Source: a virus. From it: a stretch of DNA of 6,102 nucleotides. Position numbers and translations under genes: made by a program. The stretch is from IMG/VR virus record IMGVR_UViG_3300045988_003907, positions 1 to 6,102 of that record. One strand, 5' to 3'. Below the pieces are notes generated by a model. It saw nothing but the letters and a program-made list of their open reading frames with translations, did no database searches and was not told the DNA's origin. Positions 1-6,102 of this stretch are shown piece after piece (position 1 is the stretch's first letter; every line of letters begins with the position of its first letter).

Positions 1-134
1 GTCTTATCAGAGATTACTACATCCCACAGTGCTTGTACCTGTTCGCGGTAACGGCTGCCACCGCGTGCCAGTGCTTCGTAGTACTGCTGTACTGCTACGG
101 CTTTTCTTAAGTCGTTGATGGTTGCCGCCGTTAC
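1..134. repeat. Exact inverted (foldback) copy of 5969..6102, an internal part of the capsid gene; probable chimera or assembly artefact
   Basis: The reverse complement of 1..134 matches 5969..6102 base for base (checked in 10-nt blocks). The match breaks at 135/5968. Positions 1..55 also pair perfectly with 127..181. Confidence 0.9.
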
Positions 135-181
135 CGCGAACAGGTACAAGCACTGTGGGATGTAGTAATCTCTGATAAGAC
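127..181 (+). repeat. 55-nt direct terminal redundancy with 6048..6102 (circularisation overlap)
   Basis: The string gccgttaccgcgaacaggtacaagcactgtgggatgtagtaatctctgataagac occurs identically at both places. The upstream bases differ (c at 126, a at 6047). Confidence 0.95.
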
Positions 182-812
182 GGTACAAATCCCAGAATAC
201 TTGGGAGGTGGCAGATACCACGTCAACATGAACCAAATCGTGCAGACAAGCGGACAGCAAAGCGACACAGACACACCTATTGGCGAAACTGGCGCAATGT
301 CAGTGACACCGATCAATGAAAGTTCCTTCACCAAATCGTTTGAAGAGCACGGCTTTGTAATTGGCGTATGTTGTGTGCGACACAATCACAGTTACCAGCA
401 AGGCTTGGAGCGTTTCTGGAGCAGATCGGAAAGACTGGATTACTATGTGCCTCAGTTCGCAAACTTAGGCGAACAGCCTGTCAAAAAGAAAGAAATCATG
501 TTAACCGGCCTTGGAACCGACGAGGAGACATTTGGCTATCAGGAAGCCTGGTCAGACTACAGAATGAAGCCTAACCGGGTATCCGGCAAAATGAGAAGCA
601 ATGCAGAAGGCACACTGGAATTCTGGCACTATGCGGACAAATACGATAAAGTACCAACGCTATCGCAAGAATGGATGACAGAAGGGAAAAACGAAATTGC
701 ACGAACATTGATAGTACAGAATGAGCCGCAATTCTTCGGAGCAATCCGCGTAGCAAACAAAACCACAAGGCGGATGCCGTTGTACAGCGTACCGGGCTTG
801 TATAAACTGTAA
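180..812 (+). CDS. VP1: Major capsid protein VP1, C-terminal part (continuation of 5057..6102; whole protein 558 aa)
   Basis: The frame of track ORF 201..812 stays open upstream to 111. Codon 180..182 (acg) equals 6101..6102 plus 182. The joined sequence reads ...LRKAVAVQQYYEALARGGSRYREQVQALWDVVISDKTVQIPEYLGGGRYHVNMNQ...QEAWSDYRMKPNRVSG...RRMPLYSVPGLYKL*, which carries conserved Microviridae capsid motifs. The TTG 'start' at 201 in the track is an artefact of ORF calling. Confidence 0.93.
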   Translation, partial: TVQIPEYLGGGRYHVNMNQIVQTSGQQSDTDTPIGETGAMSVTPINESSFTKSFEEHGFVIGVCCVRHNHSYQQGLERFWSRSERLDYYVPQFANLGEQPVKKKEIMLTGLGTDEETFGYQEAWSDYRMKPNRVSGKMRSNAEGTLEFWHYADKYDKVPTLSQEWMTEGKNEIARTLIVQNEPQFFGAIRVANKTTRRMPLYSVPGLYKL

Positions 813-813
813 G

Positions 814-822
814 AAAGGAGGA
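814..822 (+). promoter_or_regulatory. Shine-Dalgarno sequence (aaaggagga) for VP2, separated from its ATG by the hairpin at 823..842
   Basis: A perfect SD core directly follows the VP1 stop (810..812). It lies 28 nt from ATG 851 in linear distance but only 8 nt if the hairpin is folded. Confidence 0.5.
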
Positions 823-848
823 AGCCCGGAGAAATCCGGGCTATTTTT
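823..848 (+). terminator. Intrinsic-terminator-like hairpin after VP1
   Basis: 8-bp GC-rich stem agcccgga/tccgggct (823..830 and 835..842), a GAAA tetraloop, then a T5 run within atttttaa (T run at 844..848). Confidence 0.65.
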
Positions 849-850
849 AA

Positions 851-1714
851 ATGGGAGCATTATCAGGATTCTTAACAGCGCTAAACGTAGCGGGAAACGT
901 GGCAAACACAATCGGAACTGTTGCAGGAGCAGCTAAAAACGTAGCCGGAGCGTTTGGCGGATGGGGACAGACAGGCAATAGCCAAAGTACCGGCGGCAGC
1001 GTAAGCCAAGGCGGCGGACACTCGGAAAGCGGAAGTCAATCCGGCACAAACGTAAAGCAAGTTGACGACTGGCTAAAACAGGCATACGCATACCAAGGAC
1101 AAGAAGCAGCCATGCAAGGTAAATACAACAGTCAAAGTATGCTTAAACAGATGGGTTACAACACCTTACAAGCAATCATGCAAGGCGTATACAACCACAT
1201 CGAAAACAGCGTAGCCATGAACTACAACAGTGCAGAAGCACTAGCAAGCCGTGAATGGCAAGAGCGCATGTCAAGCACTGCATACCAGCGTGCAGTTGAA
1301 GACATGAAAAAAGCGGGACTTAATCCCATCTTAGCATTCTCAAACGGCGGCGCAAGCACACCGGGAGGAAGTGCAGGAACAATCAGCGGAGCAAGTATGG
1401 GACTTGCAAGCAGCAGCGCACTAGGAGTAAGCCGAAGCGGAGGATTTGTACCAAACGCATACGAAAGTTCCAGCTGGTCACAAAGTGACTGGTACAATGC
1501 AGCGCAAAGCTGGCAACAAATGCTCAGTACAACGCACATGACGCCATACGGACTACAAAAGGCACTTACAGAAGTAGGAAACGACACAAGCAAGGCTATT
1601 ACGGATGCAACAGCAAAGACAGGCAAAGGCGCAGAGCAGAGCAGAAGCATGAAGCCACAAGACAAAACGGGAAACTACGGAGAAAAACGAAAGCCGGGTG
1701 ATTACTTAAAGTGA
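851..1714 (+). CDS. VP2: VP2 minor capsid / DNA pilot protein (287 aa)
   Basis: The N-terminus is Gly/Ala-rich and hydrophobic (MGALSGFLTALNVAGNVANTIGTVAGAA...). The conserved gokushovirus VP2 block REWQERMSSTAYQRAVEDMKKAGLNPILAFS is present. The gene lies immediately after VP1. Confidence 0.9.
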   Translation: MGALSGFLTALNVAGNVANTIGTVAGAAKNVAGAFGGWGQTGNSQSTGGSVSQGGGHSESGSQSGTNVKQVDDWLKQAYAYQGQEAAMQGKYNSQSMLKQMGYNTLQAIMQGVYNHIENSVAMNYNSAEALASREWQERMSSTAYQRAVEDMKKAGLNPILAFSNGGASTPGGSAGTISGASMGLASSSALGVSRSGGFVPNAYESSSWSQSDWYNAAQSWQQMLSTTHMTPYGLQKALTEVGNDTSKAITDATAKTGKGAEQSRSMKPQDKTGNYGEKRKPGDYLK

Positions 1715-2730
1715 GTTGTTACAAGCCATTAATACGGCTGTACAACCCTAACGACAAAAACATCAGCGGGAGAGTGTATTCGCTCTCCCGCTATTCTCAG
1801 TTAGCGGGAAAACAGCTGAAGTATGAAGATTTGATGTATAGAAAAGATGTCATGTTGATACCATGCGGGCAGTGCATCGGATGCAGAATCAGACAAAGGG
1901 AGGACTGGACAACACGAATAGAATTAGAAGCACGAGACTATCCAAGAGAAGAAGTTTGGTTTATCACGTTGACTTATGACGAGGACCATGTACCGGGCAT
2001 GATAGTAAACACAGGTGAAATCATGCGAAAAGTACAATACGTCTGGAAACCGGGAGAGAAGCGCCCTGAAAGCGTCCAAACGTTGCTGTATACTGACGTT
2101 CAAAAGTTCTTAAAACGTCTCAGAAAGGCTTATAGGGGCAAATTACGCTATTTCGTAGCGGGAGAGTACGGAGAACAGACAGCTAGGCCACATTACCACA
2201 TGATTTTATATGGATGGAAACCAACAGACCTAGAACACTTATACAAGATACAACACAACGGATATTTCACAAGTAAATGGCTAGAAAGCCTATGGGGCAT
2301 GGGTCAAATCCAAATAGCGCAAGCAGTGCCAGAAACTTATAGATACGTTGCAGGATACGTCACAAAAAAAATGTACGAGATAGACGGTCAGAAAGCAAAC
2401 GTATACTACGAACTAGGGCAACAAAAGCCTTTTGCGTGTATGAGTCTTAAGCCGGGTCTGGGAGACCGCTACTATCAAGAACACAAAGCGGAGATATGGA
2501 GACAAGGCTACATCCAATGCACAAACGGCAAACACGCACAAATTCCGCGTTATTATGAAAAAATGATGGAAGCGGAAAACCCACAAAGATTGTGGAGAAT
2601 TAAACAGAACAGACAAGCAGCAGCCATAGCGGAGAACCGGCTTAAGTATGAAAATGCAGACTTTGCAGAGCAATGTAAGACAAAAGAAAGAGTGATAAAG
2701 AAGCAGATGAAGAAGAGAGGGACCCTTTGA
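1711..2730 (+). CDS. VP4: VP4 replication initiator, HUH rolling-circle endonuclease (phiX174 A homologue, 339 aa)
   Basis: The GTG start overlaps the VP2 stop (GTGA, 1711..1714). The N-terminus MSCYKP and the Cys cluster PCGQCIGCR are typical. Motif ITLTYD is present, as is the HUH motif RPHYHMILYG (HYH at 2191..2199). The two-tyrosine catalytic motif YVAGYVTKK has its Tyr codons at 2344..2346 and 2356..2358. Confidence 0.95.
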   Translation: MSCYKPLIRLYNPNDKNISGRVYSLSRYSQLAGKQLKYEDLMYRKDVMLIPCGQCIGCRIRQREDWTTRIELEARDYPREEVWFITLTYDEDHVPGMIVNTGEIMRKVQYVWKPGEKRPESVQTLLYTDVQKFLKRLRKAYRGKLRYFVAGEYGEQTARPHYHMILYGWKPTDLEHLYKIQHNGYFTSKWLESLWGMGQIQIAQAVPETYRYVAGYVTKKMYEIDGQKANVYYELGQQKPFACMSLKPGLGDRYYQEHKAEIWRQGYIQCTNGKHAQIPRYYEKMMEAENPQRLWRIKQNRQAAAIAENRLKYENADFAEQCKTKERVIKKQMKKRGTL

Positions 2731-2736
2731 CGGTGT

Positions 2737-2778
2737 CATCTAGCCCAGTACCTATCAAGTAAGGTACTGGGCTAGATG
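2737..2778. other. Perfect 16-bp stem-loop 7 nt downstream of the VP4 stop; either a terminator or an ssDNA origin/priming structure
   Basis: catctagcccagtacc (2737..2752) pairs with ggtactgggctagatg (2763..2778) with no mismatch. The loop is the 10-nt tatcaagtaa. Only a weak T tract follows (tcgtttaaag). Confidence 0.6.
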
Positions 2779-2834
2779 TCGTTTAAAGATTCCATGTATC
2801 AGCCTATTAAGTCTATCAAATAGCTATATCTTAT

Positions 2835-2877
2835 CGCGCGTGCGCACACGCGCGAAGCGCGCACGCGCGCACGCGCG
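2835..2877. repeat. GC-rich alternating purine-pyrimidine element with tandem GCGCACGC units and several possible hairpins
   Basis: 2835..2854 (cgcgcgtgcgcacacgcgcg) and 2857..2877 (gcgcgcacgcgcgcacgcgcg) are both perfectly alternating Py/Pu. GCGCACGC is tandem at 2859..2866 and 2867..2874. The segment 2835..2845 is complementary to 2859..2869 and also to 2867..2877. Confidence 0.8.
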
Positions 2878-3015
2878 GCTCTTCGGCGCTATAGTTCGCA
2901 AGCTCACAAGCGCCGTAAATAATATAACTTGTTGTAGGAGTAGTAGTAGAGGTGGTGGAAAAGTTGAAAAGTACTAAAATTTAACGTTAAGACGTAAATA
3001 AAAAGCAAAAAACAC

Positions 3016-3055
3016 TGTTGAAAGAATTGTTGAAAACTTGTTGAATTGTTGAAAG
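3016..3055 (+). repeat. Iteron-like cluster A: four direct copies of TGTTGAAAR
   Basis: Copies are tgttgaaag 3016..3024, tgttgaaaa 3028..3036, tgttgaat 3039..3046 (degenerate) and tgttgaaag 3047..3055. All have the same orientation. There is an outlier agttgaaaa at 2962..2970. Confidence 0.8.
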
Positions 3056-3072
3056 TTCGTCAAAATGACGAA
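3056..3072. repeat. Small palindrome TTCGTCA-AAA-TGACGAA between the two iteron clusters
   Basis: ttcgtca (3056..3062) is the reverse complement of tgacgaa (3066..3072), separated by a 3-nt spacer. Confidence 0.7.
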
Positions 3073-3090
3073 AACCTTTGTGCAACTTTA

Positions 3091-3128
3091 TGTTGAAAAC
3101 CTGTTGAAAGTGTTGAAAGTGTTGAAAA
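3091..3128 (+). repeat. Iteron-like cluster B: four direct copies of TGTTGAAAR, three of them exactly tandem (9-nt period)
   Basis: Copies are tgttgaaaa 3091..3099, tgttgaaag 3102..3110, tgttgaaag 3111..3119 and tgttgaaaa 3120..3128. Confidence 0.85.
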
Positions 3129-3269
3129 CGCGCACAGCGCTAAAAAGGAATGGATTAGCCGAGCTCCGCGTGCGCTACGCACGGCAAGGCGCAAAAGCGC
3201 TTTCAAAACAAAAGAGCAAAACCGGGTTGCAAGAGAAAGTTACAAATATATTACAAAAAAACAAAATCA

Positions 3270-3298
3270 TTAAAAAGCCTATTGAAAAACGATATAAT
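3270..3298 (+). promoter_or_regulatory. Candidate sigma70-type promoter for the accessory cassette
   Basis: TTAAAA (3270..3275), a 17-nt spacer, then a perfect TATAAT (3293..3298), about 30 nt upstream of ATG 3330. The background is A/T-rich, so chance matches are likely. Confidence 0.3.
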
Positions 3299-3329
3299 AG
3301 AATCAGAAAAAGAAAGGAGAGCGCGAACC

Positions 3330-3548
3330 ATGAAAAAAATCTACATGAGCGAGCAAAATTACATAGAACTTAATTTTTTTGGATACATAATGGCAAAAAA
3401 ATACAAATACGAAAAATCATATAAGAAAGGAGAAAAAATTATTTGCAGAAAGTACGCATTCGAACTGGGAGATGAAAAAGACGAGAACAGGTTATACAAA
3501 GCAGAAAAAAGATTCATAGAAAATGTAATCGTAGTAAAGAAAGGTTGA
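3330..3548 (+). CDS. Hypothetical protein, 72 aa, Lys/Tyr-rich, no recognisable family
   Basis: ATG 3330 is preceded by SD aaaggaga (3313..3320, 9-nt spacing). It lies in frame within track ORF 3282..3548, and its stop abuts the peptidase gene. No transmembrane segment is apparent. Confidence 0.55.
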   Translation: MKKIYMSEQNYIELNFFGYIMAKKYKYEKSYKKGEKIICRKYAFELGDEKDENRLYKAEKRFIENVIVVKKG

Positions 3549-3553
3549 CGAAA

Positions 3554-3946
3554 ATGATTAAAAGCTATATCATGGACACAGACGGAAACGTAAAACTGGC
3601 AAGACACTTCAAAGTAAAAGAATTTGCTTGCAAAGACGGCAGTCAAGTAGTGTTCATAGACGACTACCTGTACACCGTTCTGGATATCTTACGACATAAG
3701 CTAGGAAAGCCGGTAATCATCACCAGCGGATACAGAACACCAGAATGGAACAAAAAATGCAACGGAGCAAAATACAGCTACCACATGCGCGGTATGGCAG
3801 CAGACATCCGAGTAGATGGCATGAATGCAAAAGAGCTTGCCAACAAACTGAATGAAATCGTACCGGATGAATGCGGCATTATCGTATACAAAAATTGGGT
3901 ACACTTTGACGTGCGACCCGGAAAAAAATACAGAAAGGGGGTATAA
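3554..3946 (+). CDS. Zinc D,D/L,D-peptidase of the LAS / Peptidase_M15 (YcbK-like, M15_3-type) fold; candidate endolysin (130 aa)
   Basis: ATG 3554 (SD agaaagg at 3538..3544) lies in frame within track ORF 3545..3946. Family-typical N-terminal block: HFKVKEFACKDG. SGYR is followed by the zinc ligands H-x6-D in SYHMRGMAAD (His 3782..3784, Asp 3803..3805). The distal WVHFDV supplies the third ligand (His 3902..3904). Confidence 0.85.
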   Translation: MIKSYIMDTDGNVKLARHFKVKEFACKDGSQVVFIDDYLYTVLDILRHKLGKPVIITSGYRTPEWNKKCNGAKYSYHMRGMAADIRVDGMNAKELANKLNEIVPDECGIIVYKNWVHFDVRPGKKYRKGV

Positions 3947-3947
3947 A

Positions 3948-4070
3948 ATGGCACTGATCTCTATTAAAGACGTCAAACAGGCAATCCGCATTATGATGCA
4001 GATTCTCGAAAAGCTTGACGAGATCTATCACGCACTGCACGACAGCATCAACGAAAACGAAAAGGAGTAA
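3948..4070 (+). CDS. Hypothetical small protein, 40 aa (MALISIKDVKQAIRIMMQILEKLDEIYHALHDSINENEKE)
   Basis: ATG 3948 begins 1 nt after the peptidase stop, with SD gaaaggggg (3933..3941). It is in frame with track ORF 3852..4070, whose upstream part overlaps the peptidase and is unlikely to be real. Confidence 0.45.
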   Translation: MALISIKDVKQAIRIMMQILEKLDEIYHALHDSINENEKE

Positions 4071-4074
4071 AATC

Positions 4075-4302
4075 ATGATGCACAAAGCATGGAACGTACG
4101 CGACCAGACCAAAGAAGCATTGGAAGAACTACTCACACGAAAATACAAAGAAATTGACAGCGATTACAAAATGCTTAGAAAAGTGTCAAACATTGAGGAT
4201 GCAAAAAGGCTGGTAGATGAAATTTGGCAGATAAAAAGCTTTGCAAACGCTATCGAACTGGAACTGATTAGAAGGGAGTACATCAATGGCACGACATCGT
4301 AA
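4075..4302 (+). CDS. Hypothetical protein, 75 aa, predicted all-helical and charged
   Basis: ATG 4075 has SD aaaggag (4061..4067, 7-nt spacing). This is the plausible start of track ORF 4015..4302. Confidence 0.6.
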   Translation: MMHKAWNVRDQTKEALEELLTRKYKEIDSDYKMLRKVSNIEDAKRLVDEIWQIKSFANAIELELIRREYINGTTS

Positions 4303-4408
4303 AGCAATGACCGGCGCAAAAGACCGCCGTATGTTTAACGTAACCGCACGAAAAACCAAAACTATCAACCTCAGCCAGAAGCCTATGAGAGGCGGCATCC
4401 GGCTGTAA
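4286..4408 (+). CDS. VP8: VP8-type Arg/Lys-rich DNA-binding (packaging) peptide, 40 aa (functional analogue of phiX174 J)
   Basis: Absent from the ORF track because it is too short. ATG 4286 has SD gaagggag (4271..4278, 7-nt spacing). The translation is MARHRKAMTGAKDRRMFNVTARKTKTINLSQKPMRGGIRL*. The basic N-terminus, the RRMF..TA core and the C-terminal MRGGIRL match the gokushovirus ORF8 pattern as I remember it from Chlamydia phages. Confidence 0.8.
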   Translation: MARHRKAMTGAKDRRMFNVTARKTKTINLSQKPMRGGIRL

Positions 4409-4429
4409 AACAAAAGGAGAATAGATATC

Positions 4430-4669
4430 ATGAAGCATGAATATTTTGGCCTGTGGGACAGTGTAGCAAAGTGCTATGCATGGGTAGGCGAAAGCAAGAA
4501 CAGTGCAACGTTCGCACGTATGTGCAATGTGATGGCAAAAGATGAAAAAACGTTTGTCGGACAAGCGCCGGGTGACTACACCGGCTTTAAACTGGCAGTG
4601 TTCGAAGATGAACAGGGCACGTTCGCAAACGACAAGGAAAAGGTATGGGAGGGCAAGCCAAATGAATAA
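4430..4669 (+). CDS. VP5: Small non-structural protein, VP5-like (79 aa); function tentative
   Basis: ATG 4430 has SD aaaggaga (4413..4420). It occupies the position before VP3 typical of gokushovirus VP5. The pattern F.LWDSVAKCY...KNSATFARM...DYTGFKLAVFEDEQGTF resembles that family from memory only. Confidence 0.6.
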   Translation: MKHEYFGLWDSVAKCYAWVGESKNSATFARMCNVMAKDEKTFVGQAPGDYTGFKLAVFEDEQGTFANDKEKVWEGKPNE

Positions 4670-5060
4670 ACGATATGAAGAAGGGCGAGAGCCCTTCTTT
4701 TCTGAATCAGGCGAAAAAATGCGAAAGCAATACGTCTGGACGAAGGACGAAAAAGGACAGGAAGTGCTCCAGGAAACTGCACCAATCGACATCCAGCAGG
4801 AAATTGAAAGCTATGCGGACGAATGTGACATCAAAAGCATTATCAGAAAAGCAAGTTTCGACCCGCAGTTTCTAAAAAGCCTGTCAGAAGGAGCGCTAAA
4901 CGGAACAGAAGTGGACATCACCGAATTCCCGCAGAACATTCACGAGTATCATCGCATGCTAGCGACCGCACAGGCAAACGCCATGAAACTTGAAGAACTG
5001 CAAAAAGCAGCAAAAGAAGAACCAACAGTAGAACCTAAAGCAAAGGAGGAAGAAAAGTGA
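4662..5060 (+). CDS. VP3: VP3 internal scaffolding protein (132 aa)
   Basis: ATG 4662 overlaps the VP5 stop (ATGAATAA) and has SD gggaggg at 4647..4653. The conserved ...ESYADECDIKSIIRKA... (DECDI-type) block and an acidic/Lys-rich C-terminus are present. The gene lies directly upstream of VP1. The track start at 4542 would overlap VP5 by 128 nt and is rejected. Confidence 0.8.
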   Translation: MNKRYEEGREPFFSESGEKMRKQYVWTKDEKGQEVLQETAPIDIQQEIESYADECDIKSIIRKASFDPQFLKSLSEGALNGTEVDITEFPQNIHEYHRMLATAQANAMKLEELQKAAKEEPTVEPKAKEEEK

Positions 5061-6102
5061 ATCGAAACAATGAGCGACACTTTAACCAGATTCCGGAAAT
5101 GAAAGCAAGTCGAACGCGGTTTAATCGTGACCAGACGGTTTTAACAACATTCGATGCCGGCAAGCTGATTCCGTTTTACGTTGATGAAGTATTACCCGGC
5201 GACACATTTAGCGTGGACACGTCGGCAATCGTCCGAATGACAACGCCGAAATTTCCTGTTTTCGATGACGCGTTCATCGACTTTTACTACTTCTACTGTC
5301 CTAACCGTATCTTATGGGACAACTTCAAGCAATTCATGGGAGAAGTAGAGGAAACGCCGTGGATGCCGAAAAGAACCTATACAGTACCCAAAATCATCAT
5401 CTCAGGCAGCAAAGATAACCCGGCGCCATATGAAGAGTCAATACTGGATTACATGGGAATCCCAACGAAAGTTCAAAACGGCTTCATGGTAAACGCACTA
5501 CCAGTCAGAGCATATGTAAAAATCTGGAATGAATTTTTCAGAGATGAAAACGTAGGAAATGCGGCATCCATCAAAACCGATGACAACAACGTAATTTACG
5601 ATGACACAGAAGACGATGGAAACATCGACGGAAATCTGCAACGGGCAAACACGGGCGGCAGATGCTTACCGGTAAACAAGTTTCACGACTACTTCACCAG
5701 CTGCCTACCGTATCCTCAGCGCGGGCCGGAAGTAGTAATGCCGATGCAGGGCAATGCAAGAATAACCGGATACGCAGATGATAAATTCAACGAAAGAGCA
5801 CCCCTATATGTAAACAGCTTTCATGACGGAAGCACAAACCCGGGCAACATCAAAGACAAACTGTATGCAATCGCACAAGATGGAGGCAAAGGATCAGCAT
5901 ACCTAGCCATTGGAGACGGAACAGGCACAGAACATAGCGTGGTATACCTGGGAGCAGACCTCGGAAGCGTAACGGCGGCAACCATCAACGACTTAAGAAA
6001 AGCCGTAGCAGTACAGCAGTACTACGAAGCACTGGCACGCGGTGGCAGCCGTTACCGCGAACAGGTACAAGCACTGTGGGATGTAGTAATCTCTGATAAG
6101 AC
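5057..6102 (+). CDS. VP1: Major capsid protein VP1 (phiX174 F homologue), N-terminal 348 codons plus 2 nt; continues at 182
   Basis: The GTG start at 5057 overlaps the VP3 stop (GTGA) and has the SD aaaggagga at 5042..5050. The translation begins NRNNERHFNQIPEMKASRTRFNRDQTVLTTFDAGKLIPFYVDEVLPGDTFSVD..., the hallmark Microviridae capsid N-terminus. I translated the frame by hand to the window end and found no stop. The ORF track omits it because it has no stop inside the window. Confidence 0.95.
   Translation, partial: MNRNNERHFNQIPEMKASRTRFNRDQTVLTTFDAGKLIPFYVDEVLPGDTFSVDTSAIVRMTTPKFPVFDDAFIDFYYFYCPNRILWDNFKQFMGEVEETPWMPKRTYTVPKIIISGSKDNPAPYEESILDYMGIPTKVQNGFMVNALPVRAYVKIWNEFFRDENVGNAASIKTDDNNVIYDDTEDDGNIDGNLQRANTGGRCLPVNKFHDYFTSCLPYPQRGPEVVMPMQGNARITGYADDKFNERAPLYVNSFHDGSTNPGNIKDKLYAIAQDGGKGSAYLAIGDGTGTEHSVVYLGADLGSVTAATINDLRKAVAVQQYYEALARGGSRYREQVQALWDVVISDK

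Follow-up and report, generated by a model that had tools for sequence, protein, structure and literature searches.

The window analysed here covers positions 1 to 6,102 of the IMG/VR virus record IMGVR_UViG_3300045988_003907 (6,102 nucleotides (nt)), and the subject of the analysis is a gene for a putative M15_3/LAS zinc peptidase. The window is a gokushovirus-type microvirus in which every recognisable gene lies on the plus strand (Table 1). The peptidase open reading frame (ORF) runs from the ATG at 3554 to a stop codon at 3944-3946 and encodes 130 amino acids (aa). A Shine-Dalgarno-like AAAGAAAGG lies at 3537-3545 on the plus strand, 8 nt ahead of this ATG; the program-made ORF list begins the same ORF at TTG 3545.

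The peptidase was examined by profile searches, alignment and structure prediction. Pfam PF08291 (Peptidase_M15_3) matched with 81.9 bits against a cut-off of 23.2 (expectation value (E) 4.3e-23, model positions 2-108 of 108), and PF05951 (DUF882/Peptidase_M15_2) with 35.1 bits against a cut-off of 27. The PHROG family phrog_894, annotated as 'endolysin', matched with an E of 5.6e-43. When 47 homologues from microviruses and Oscillospirales phages were aligned, the residues R61, H77, D84, H117 and D119 were invariant. The catalytic R/H/D/H/D set was kept in 44 of 45 ungapped relatives. An AlphaFold2 model had a mean predicted local distance difference test (pLDDT) of 74 and a predicted template modelling score (pTM) of 0.71, with residues 8-25 poorly defined. 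The top 29 Foldseek matches in the PDB were all LAS proteins, with probabilities up to 1.00, TM-scores of 0.53 or less and E values of 2e-3 or more; they included 1LBU, VanY, VanXYc, hedgehog N-domains, LdcB, LysECD7 and EndoT5. The best fold match was 1LBU, the Zn DD-peptidase of Streptomyces albus G, whose SxHxxGxAxD metal motif aligns with the enzyme of the window (single-sequence E 3e-4, profile E 4.5e-8), although the two share only about 20% identity and 1LBU possesses an additional N-terminal domain. In this alignment, H154 and D161 of 1LBU, reported to be zinc ligands of that enzyme (Bochtler et al. 2004), are matched by H77 and D84, and R138 by R61. For the third zinc ligand, H117, the equivalence comes from the Pfam alignment and from conservation rather than from an explicit structural superposition. 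VanX, VanY and EndoT5 carry a Glu or Asp three residues before the distal His, whereas the window enzyme lacks it and reads N-W-V-H at this site. The gene is under purifying selection, with a ratio of nonsynonymous to synonymous substitution rates (dN/dS) against relatives of 0.135, where VP3 has 0.11 and VP4 0.055. The predicted product is thus an intact single-domain LAS-type zinc peptidase (Peptidase_M15_3; Pfam clan Peptidase_MD, MEROPS M15). A preliminary description of this DNA had recognised an intact LAS/M15 peptidase in a microvirus from the SGYR, H-x6-D and VHFD motifs and had proposed profile searches and structure prediction; the motifs were found at the positions it named, and both analyses agreed with it.

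The remaining genes make up the Gokushovirinae set: VP1 (Phage_F), the pilot protein VP2, VP3 (Chlamy_scaf), the replication protein VP4 (Rep) and VP5, all on one strand. A true circle of about 5,921 nt (182-6102) was deduced from repeats at the window ends. Nucleotides 1-134 form a fold-back, being identical to the reverse complement of 5969-6102, nucleotides 120-181 duplicate 6041-6102 (97%), and the first 119-181 nt of the window are an assembly artefact. VP1 joined across the circle junction translates to 558 aa. Three small ORFs flank the peptidase, orf72 upstream and orf40 and orf75 downstream. Because the genes from orf72 to VP1 are separated by gaps of at most 21 nt or overlap, the peptidase is apparently co-transcribed with the structural genes. 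The closest GenBank records were Gokushovirus WZ-2015a (KT264791), with 85% nucleotide identity across 92% of the window, and the human gut gokushovirus KX513868, in which a coding sequence is labelled 'peptidase M15'.

Table 1. Features of the window and of related genomes discussed in the text.
Feature	Position	Strand	Basis or remark
Assembly artefact	1-181		Repeat analysis
VP1 major capsid protein, 3' part	182-812	+	Pfam Phage_F positions 302-501, E 1.7e-56
VP2 DNA pilot protein	851-1714	+	phrog_8742, E 5e-126
VP4 replication initiator	1711-2730	+	Pfam REP_ORF2-G2P; phrog_942, E 9e-109
Non-coding region upstream of peptidase cassette, ~600 nt	2731-3329		Repeat finder, sequence
orf72, basic 72-aa ORF	3330-3548	+	Upstream of peptidase
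Predicted M15_3/LAS zinc peptidase gene, 130 aa + stop	3554-3946	+	Pfam, PHROG, motifs, fold
SGYR motif (R61)	3725-3736	+	Read from sequence
H77	3782-3784	+	Read from sequence
D84 (H-x6-D)	3803-3805	+	Read from sequence
H117	3902-3904	+	Read from sequence, VHFD motif
D119	3908-3910	+	Read from sequence, VHFD motif
orf40, acidic helical protein	3948-4070	+	Starts 1 nt past peptidase stop
orf75, small hydrophilic helical protein	4075-4302	+	Conservation in relatives
J/VP8-like 40-aa Arg/Lys-rich DNA-binding protein	4286-4408	+	phrog_10695, E 2.6e-10; 77/80 relatives
VP5	4430-4669	+	Pfam Phage_ORF5; PHROG match (VP5/VP3: phrog_1670, phrog_24309)
VP3 internal scaffold	4662-5060	+	Pfam Chlamy_scaf; PHROG match (VP5/VP3: phrog_1670, phrog_24309)
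VP1 major capsid protein, 5' part	5057-6102	+	Pfam Phage_F, phrog_514; start GTG 5057, continues at 182-812
orf40 in peptidase-less genomes	L083 1826-1921; L084 4237-4332; L085 4538-4654; L086 2101-2196		Conserved core
Dulem 35-aa transmembrane ORF	L167 2593-2700; L168 2621-2728		Candidate holin/lysis partner

Genes of this type have been described and annotated before, and in a very abundant clade of gut gokushoviruses the gene has become fixed. M15_3 peptidases were described in five human-gut Gokushovirinae and six Alpavirinae by Roux et al. 2012 (PMC3394797), who argued for repeated horizontal acquisition, found the gokushoviral copies akin to Faecalibacterium and proposed a putative endolysin role; Kirchberger 2022 and Neri 2022 are in line with that role. 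Peptidases are among the few recurrent accessory genes of microviruses (Kirchberger et al. 2022, PMC9239249), and M15 peptidases occur in cultured microviruses, namely roseophages, vB_RpoMi-Mini and the Bacteroides phage phiHBP1. Compared with the gut viruses of Roux et al., the window has the same gene, virus group and architecture, and nothing of kind differs; relative to published gut gokushoviruses it additionally has the orf72 insertion. The published descriptions of gut gokushoviral M15_3 peptidases consulted here make no mention of a missing holin.

GenBank relatives (KT264791, KX513868, MG945447 and others) carry the 'peptidase M15' annotation at 64-90% protein identity, 90% being that of the closest deposited copy. 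In IMG/VR, 262 stretches encode a relative of the peptidase, and the best 80 of these (75-97% identical) served as peptidase-selected relatives. A second set was formed by the 80 closest IMG/VR stretches by VP1, of which 71 are apparently complete; the peptidase was present in all 71. In a collection of 5.8 billion proteins, more than 1,500 protein clusters (90% identity) matched at an E of at most 1e-5, the best of them nearly all on contigs not longer than a microvirus genome, and 11,466 family representatives (50% identity) matched at an E of at most 1e-3. With these numbers and the description of 2012, the earlier assessment of the gene as uncommon rather than unprecedented does not hold. 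Four shorter contigs among the VP1-selected relatives lacked the peptidase. Two of them, L307 (4,750 nt) and L317 (5,076 nt), look as though they may be circular; in such circles orf40 would follow VP4 after about 50-350 nt, neither the long non-coding region nor the peptidase would be present, and the L307 junction restores the orf40 start. Natural deletion or a collapse of the assembly could account for these contigs. Two IMG/VR contigs with the microviral peptidase far exceed a microvirus genome (L046, 10.9 kb; L076/L297, 8.8 kb). Their extra sequence is rich in hydrophobic ORFs, and chimeric assembly or concatemers may explain them.

Outside the microviruses, the closest homologues that the phage database contained were the annotated endolysins of the Faecalibacterium phages FP_Toutatis and FP_oengus, with 43-46% identity. 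In a search of 185,579 species genomes, nearly all of the 80 best matches (41-50% identity) fell in Oscillospirales or other Clostridia, including Faecalibacterium, Acutalibacteraceae, Oscillibacter, Dysosmobacter, Lawsonibacter and Papillibacter. A search of the same genomes for a host with VP1 gave no match, and the peptidase matches, at no more than 50% identity, lay in Clostridia prophages. Like the window enzyme, the FP_Toutatis and FP_oengus endolysins are single-domain M15_3 proteins (137-138 aa), and their wider family keeps the same invariant R/H/D/H/D; a 7-residue loop (PVKAGRP) of these endolysins is deleted in the microviral version. Tailed phages that infect Oscillospirales (Faecalibacterium and its relatives) were evidently the source from which the lineage gained the peptidase by horizontal transfer, and the gene is now fixed there. 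The gene neighbourhoods differ. The FP_Toutatis endolysin is directly followed by transmembrane proteins with mean Kyte-Doolittle hydropathies over 19 residues (KD19) of 2.6 and 1.9. In FP_oengus, two tail-protein genes directly precede the endolysin, and a KD19 2.6 protein and an annotated holin follow it. As a crude control, 49 of 52 Oscillospirales loci had a same-strand transmembrane ORF within 1.5 kb. The window genome has no such gene on the plus strand.

Transmembrane segments were called by a KD19 hydropathy scan, which detected the transmembrane or holin-like neighbours of the tailed-phage endolysins as positive control. When the true genome was scanned from stop to stop, ignoring start codons, no KD19 window of at least 1.4 was found in any plus-strand frame. 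The maximum was 0.75 in the peptidase, 0.95 in orf40, 0.51 in orf75 and lower still in orf72, and the most hydrophobic plus-strand element was the Gly/Ala-rich N-terminus of VP2 (1.12). A hidden or overprinted transmembrane gene on the plus strand was therefore rejected, and the scan revealed no small overprinted membrane protein of the amurin type in the plus frames. Of a canonical holin-endolysin cassette, the putative endolysin gene is present and a phage-encoded small transmembrane protein was not found on the plus strand. In 72 of the 80 peptidase-selected relatives, no plus-strand ORF of at least 20 aa reached a KD19 of 1.5; most of the 8 exceptions were VP2 N-termini or over-long, probably chimeric contigs. 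The peptidase N-terminus, MIKSYIMDTDGNVKLARHFKVKEF, is charged, and the scan found in it no hydrophobic signal or signal-anchor-release (SAR) segment. Longer database variants carry hydrophilic extensions only. Variants extended N-terminally (up to 200 aa) were considered as signal-bearing isoforms and rejected as hydrophilic read-throughs of the upstream region. The preliminary description had noted the missing signal or SAR-like N-terminus and the lack of transmembrane-length segments in the neighbouring ORFs, and had called the route to the cell wall unexplained; all three points stand, and the second extends to all plus-strand frames of the genome.

Other microviruses with wall hydrolases were compared. 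The peptidoglycan hydrolase Gp7 of Ebor (Tainavirinae) was shown to degrade peptidoglycan, and Ebor also encodes a small transmembrane protein, Gp1, of 45 aa (PMC11980548), which the window clade lacks. Gp7 matched a different structural template (6SSC) from the window enzyme. In Dulem viruses 195 and 178, microviruses of the lemur gut with peptidases 49-51% identical to that of the window, an annotated 35-aa ORF with a single transmembrane helix (KD19 2.7-2.9) lies just after VP2; it is absent from the window clade. Since Ebor and the Dulem viruses do encode a small membrane protein, the lack of a transmembrane-length segment in the clade is a real lineage feature. The Dulem-type peptidase was also tried as a route to more microviruses with a transmembrane partner, and IMG/VR gave mostly tailed-phage contigs.

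Two further sets of hydrophobic ORFs were observed. The minus strand contains many long ones, with KD19 up to 2.8, one of them antisense to the peptidase end and orf40 (3879-4148); they would be attributable to composition, as A is frequent on the plus strand (37%) and T scarce (18%). Within the 5' end of VP1, another gokushovirus clade with the peptidase has a recurrent, moderately hydrophobic, overprinted 24-aa ORF, LLHGHIFLLCACKTFVGTL (KD19 1.5-1.8; L171 171-245; also L252, L254, L255, L261, L264 and L268). As a partner it was rejected, for the homologous frame in the window is closed after 11 codons and a conserved VP1 motif probably gives rise to the ORF incidentally.

We consider it most likely, with a probability of roughly 60%, that the peptidase acts as the endolysin of the virus and degrades host peptidoglycan at egress. 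This assessment draws on sequence comparison, in which the nearest homologues are annotated endolysins beside transmembrane or holin genes. The peptidase would be synthesised in the cytoplasm, its gene sharing a polycistronic unit with the structural genes, and at the end of infection it would cut peptide bonds of the host peptidoglycan, so that the wall fails and the virions escape. The membrane would be crossed through a lesion not made by a classical holin. It might be caused by an excess of the pilot protein VP2, which has the one mildly hydrophobic element at its N-terminus, or by general de-energisation of the membrane late in infection. A loose precedent is given by some mycobacteriophage LysA proteins, which on accumulation lyse cells without their holin (PMC6116114). 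We infer the muralytic activity, the part played at egress and the passage across the membrane alike.

Several observations weigh against an endolysin role. There is no holin, signal peptide or SAR domain, so that a required canonical step is missing, and the substitute proposed for it is speculative. The charge and isoelectric point (pI) of the enzyme are similar to those of the holin-dependent homologues (pI 9.3 vs 9.6), and an adaptation of charge to the membrane was rejected for that reason. Gokushoviruses with a VP1 about 45% identical and the same orf40-J-VP5-VP3 block have neither the peptidase nor transmembrane proteins. Because these distant relatives lack both, egress in the wider lineage is not strictly dependent on the peptidase; they show that the wider lineage has another way out of the cell, and the peptidase may enhance egress without being its only effector. 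Within the close clade, L307 and L317 may be circular genomes without the peptidase.

The same findings were considered under the assumption of a role at entry, in which a few virion-borne copies would digest the thick peptidoglycan of a putative monoderm (Oscillospirales) host and give the pilot protein access, in the manner of the virion-associated lysins of tectiviruses and of cystovirus P5. The nearest homologues do come from phages of monoderm Clostridia, and a tailless T=1 particle of 30 nm would face an exposed thick wall. The lack of an egress partner (holin) on the plus strand would be accounted for, as would a gene that is fixed in the clade and absent from the relatives with VP1 about 45% identical, whose hosts may differ. 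In cystoviruses, lytic enzymes serve both entry and egress. However, the peptidase has no structural-protein signature and is not fused to VP1 or VP2, and its tailed-phage homologues stand beside transmembrane or holin genes in a lysis-cassette position, although the FP_oengus copy also directly follows two tail-protein genes. In Ebor, the only microvirus examined in this respect, Gp7 was present in virions at trace amounts only (PMC11980548). Altogether, an entry enzyme appears unlikely.

A further explanation removes the need for membrane passage, which fits the missing transmembrane segments in the plus frames. As an enzymatic 'amurin', the peptidase would stay in the cytoplasm and, like VanX or VanXY, hydrolyse the peptide stem of UDP-MurNAc-peptides or of lipid I/II; wall synthesis would be starved and growing cells would lyse, the end-point of phiX174 E being reached by catalysis. 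Small-genome phages typically lyse through a blocked precursor supply. VanY and VanXYc, which act on cytoplasmic or precursor substrates, are among the top fold matches. Yet enzymes that act together with holins on the mature wall are 41-50% identical to it, and it shows no obvious change from them, with the same length class and invariant residues and a similar charge. In addition, small peptidase endolysins of the EndoT5 type have been over-produced in the cytoplasm of E. coli without lysis. We regard this explanation as very unlikely. Like the enzyme proposed here, phiX174 E provides lysis in a tiny single-stranded DNA phage without a holin-endolysin pair, but as an overprinted, non-enzymatic membrane protein that inhibits MraY, whereas the window has a hydrolase fold and no plus-strand transmembrane ORF.

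The small ORFs next to the peptidase were then weighed as partners. Their sizes of 72, 40 and 75 aa had been given correctly in the preliminary description, and their boundaries were corrected (72 upstream, 40 and 75 downstream); there are two 40-aa ORFs, orf40 adjoining the peptidase and the J/VP8-like protein further downstream. The upstream orf72 has a pI of 9.5, lies in a stretch of 34% GC and has no transmembrane segment. It occurred in 0 of 80 peptidase-selected and 1 of 71 VP1-selected relatives, matched nothing in 50,697 phage records, Pfam or PHROG, and looks like a recent insertion. The second ORF, orf40, encodes 34-40 aa around the core MAL[IV]S[IL]KD.K.AI..M..ILEKLDEIYHAL; 78 of 80 relatives have it, its start and stop being conserved, and almost all GenBank records leave it unannotated. 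Its dN/dS of 0.15 is indicative only (9 pairs, saturated dS of 1.18). In peptidase-less gokushoviruses with VP1 about 45% identical (L083-L086), orf40 adjoins the J-like gene. The third, orf75, was found in 49 of 80 peptidase-selected and 68 of 71 VP1-selected relatives, has a dN/dS of 0.17 and no transmembrane segment; a 68-aa ORF in L083-L086 looks homologous to it by eye.

Export by a chaperone without a holin was considered on this basis, with orf40, orf75 or orf72 binding the peptidase and handing it to the host secretion system in the manner of Ms6 Gp1/LysA, for which there is the precedent of a small soluble export helper (PMC6116114). In its favour is the position of orf40, which starts 1 nt past the peptidase stop here and within 1-2 nt of it in 39 of 78 relatives; it appears to be under purifying selection, by the estimate from those 9 pairs, and the second gokushovirus clade has an orf40-like ORF immediately upstream of its peptidase, where a related motif, KILAM.DKIYHA, was observed (L169 1143-1385, L171 4049-4459). 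All small ORFs cluster in the VP4-VP5 interval, however, and adjacency is therefore weak evidence. An Ms6-type helper would also have to be reconciled with the occurrence of orf40 without the peptidase, which, together with the orf75-like protein in peptidase-less gokushoviruses, points to another primary function. None of the three is a convincing dedicated partner, because orf40 and orf75 occur without the peptidase and orf72 is almost unique to the window genome. As a dedicated partner orf40 was rejected; it is a core gene of the lineage. The chance that such a chaperone operates is very slim in our estimation, and the earlier suggestion of a non-canonical partner among the flanking proteins is correspondingly weakened.

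In the non-coding region ahead of the cassette, a perfect 17-bp hairpin (2737-2778) comes right behind the VP4 stop; further on are a GC-rich imperfect palindrome (2835-2877) built of CGCGCAC-type repeats and, at 3010-3125, GTTGAAA(G/A) iterons. A frame over the iterons, 'orf102' (3065-3373), is half-conserved in 73 of 80 relatives, and some database proteins (P0019) have it joined in-frame with the peptidase. The 'orf102' region probably acts at the DNA level, as an origin or promoter, and not as a gene. A promoter and terminator scan of 2650-4450 gave counts not above shuffled expectation.

Gokushoviruses are among the most abundant phages with single-stranded DNA in the human and pig gut, and to our knowledge their lysis is still undefined. 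The enzyme itself adds little, as genes like it have been on record for gut microviruses since 2012. A whole endolysin-bearing gokushovirus clade without a transmembrane-length segment in any plus frame goes a little further than the literature consulted; this is not a new system, and it makes gokushovirus lysis a testable question. That a clade with a fixed, selected endolysin and no plus-strand transmembrane segment lyses by a holin-free mechanism not yet described for DNA phages is a doubtful but conceivable proposition. Such a mechanism may consist in destruction of precursors, export by a small soluble protein or breaching of the membrane by VP2. If the hosts are Oscillospirales, this would be a gokushovirus lineage infecting monoderm bacteria. 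The small single-domain enzyme could also have a practical use as a lysin against Faecalibacterium-like Clostridia. A holin-free route or a role in entry into Gram-positive cells, if true, would widen the known lysis and host-range repertoire of phages.

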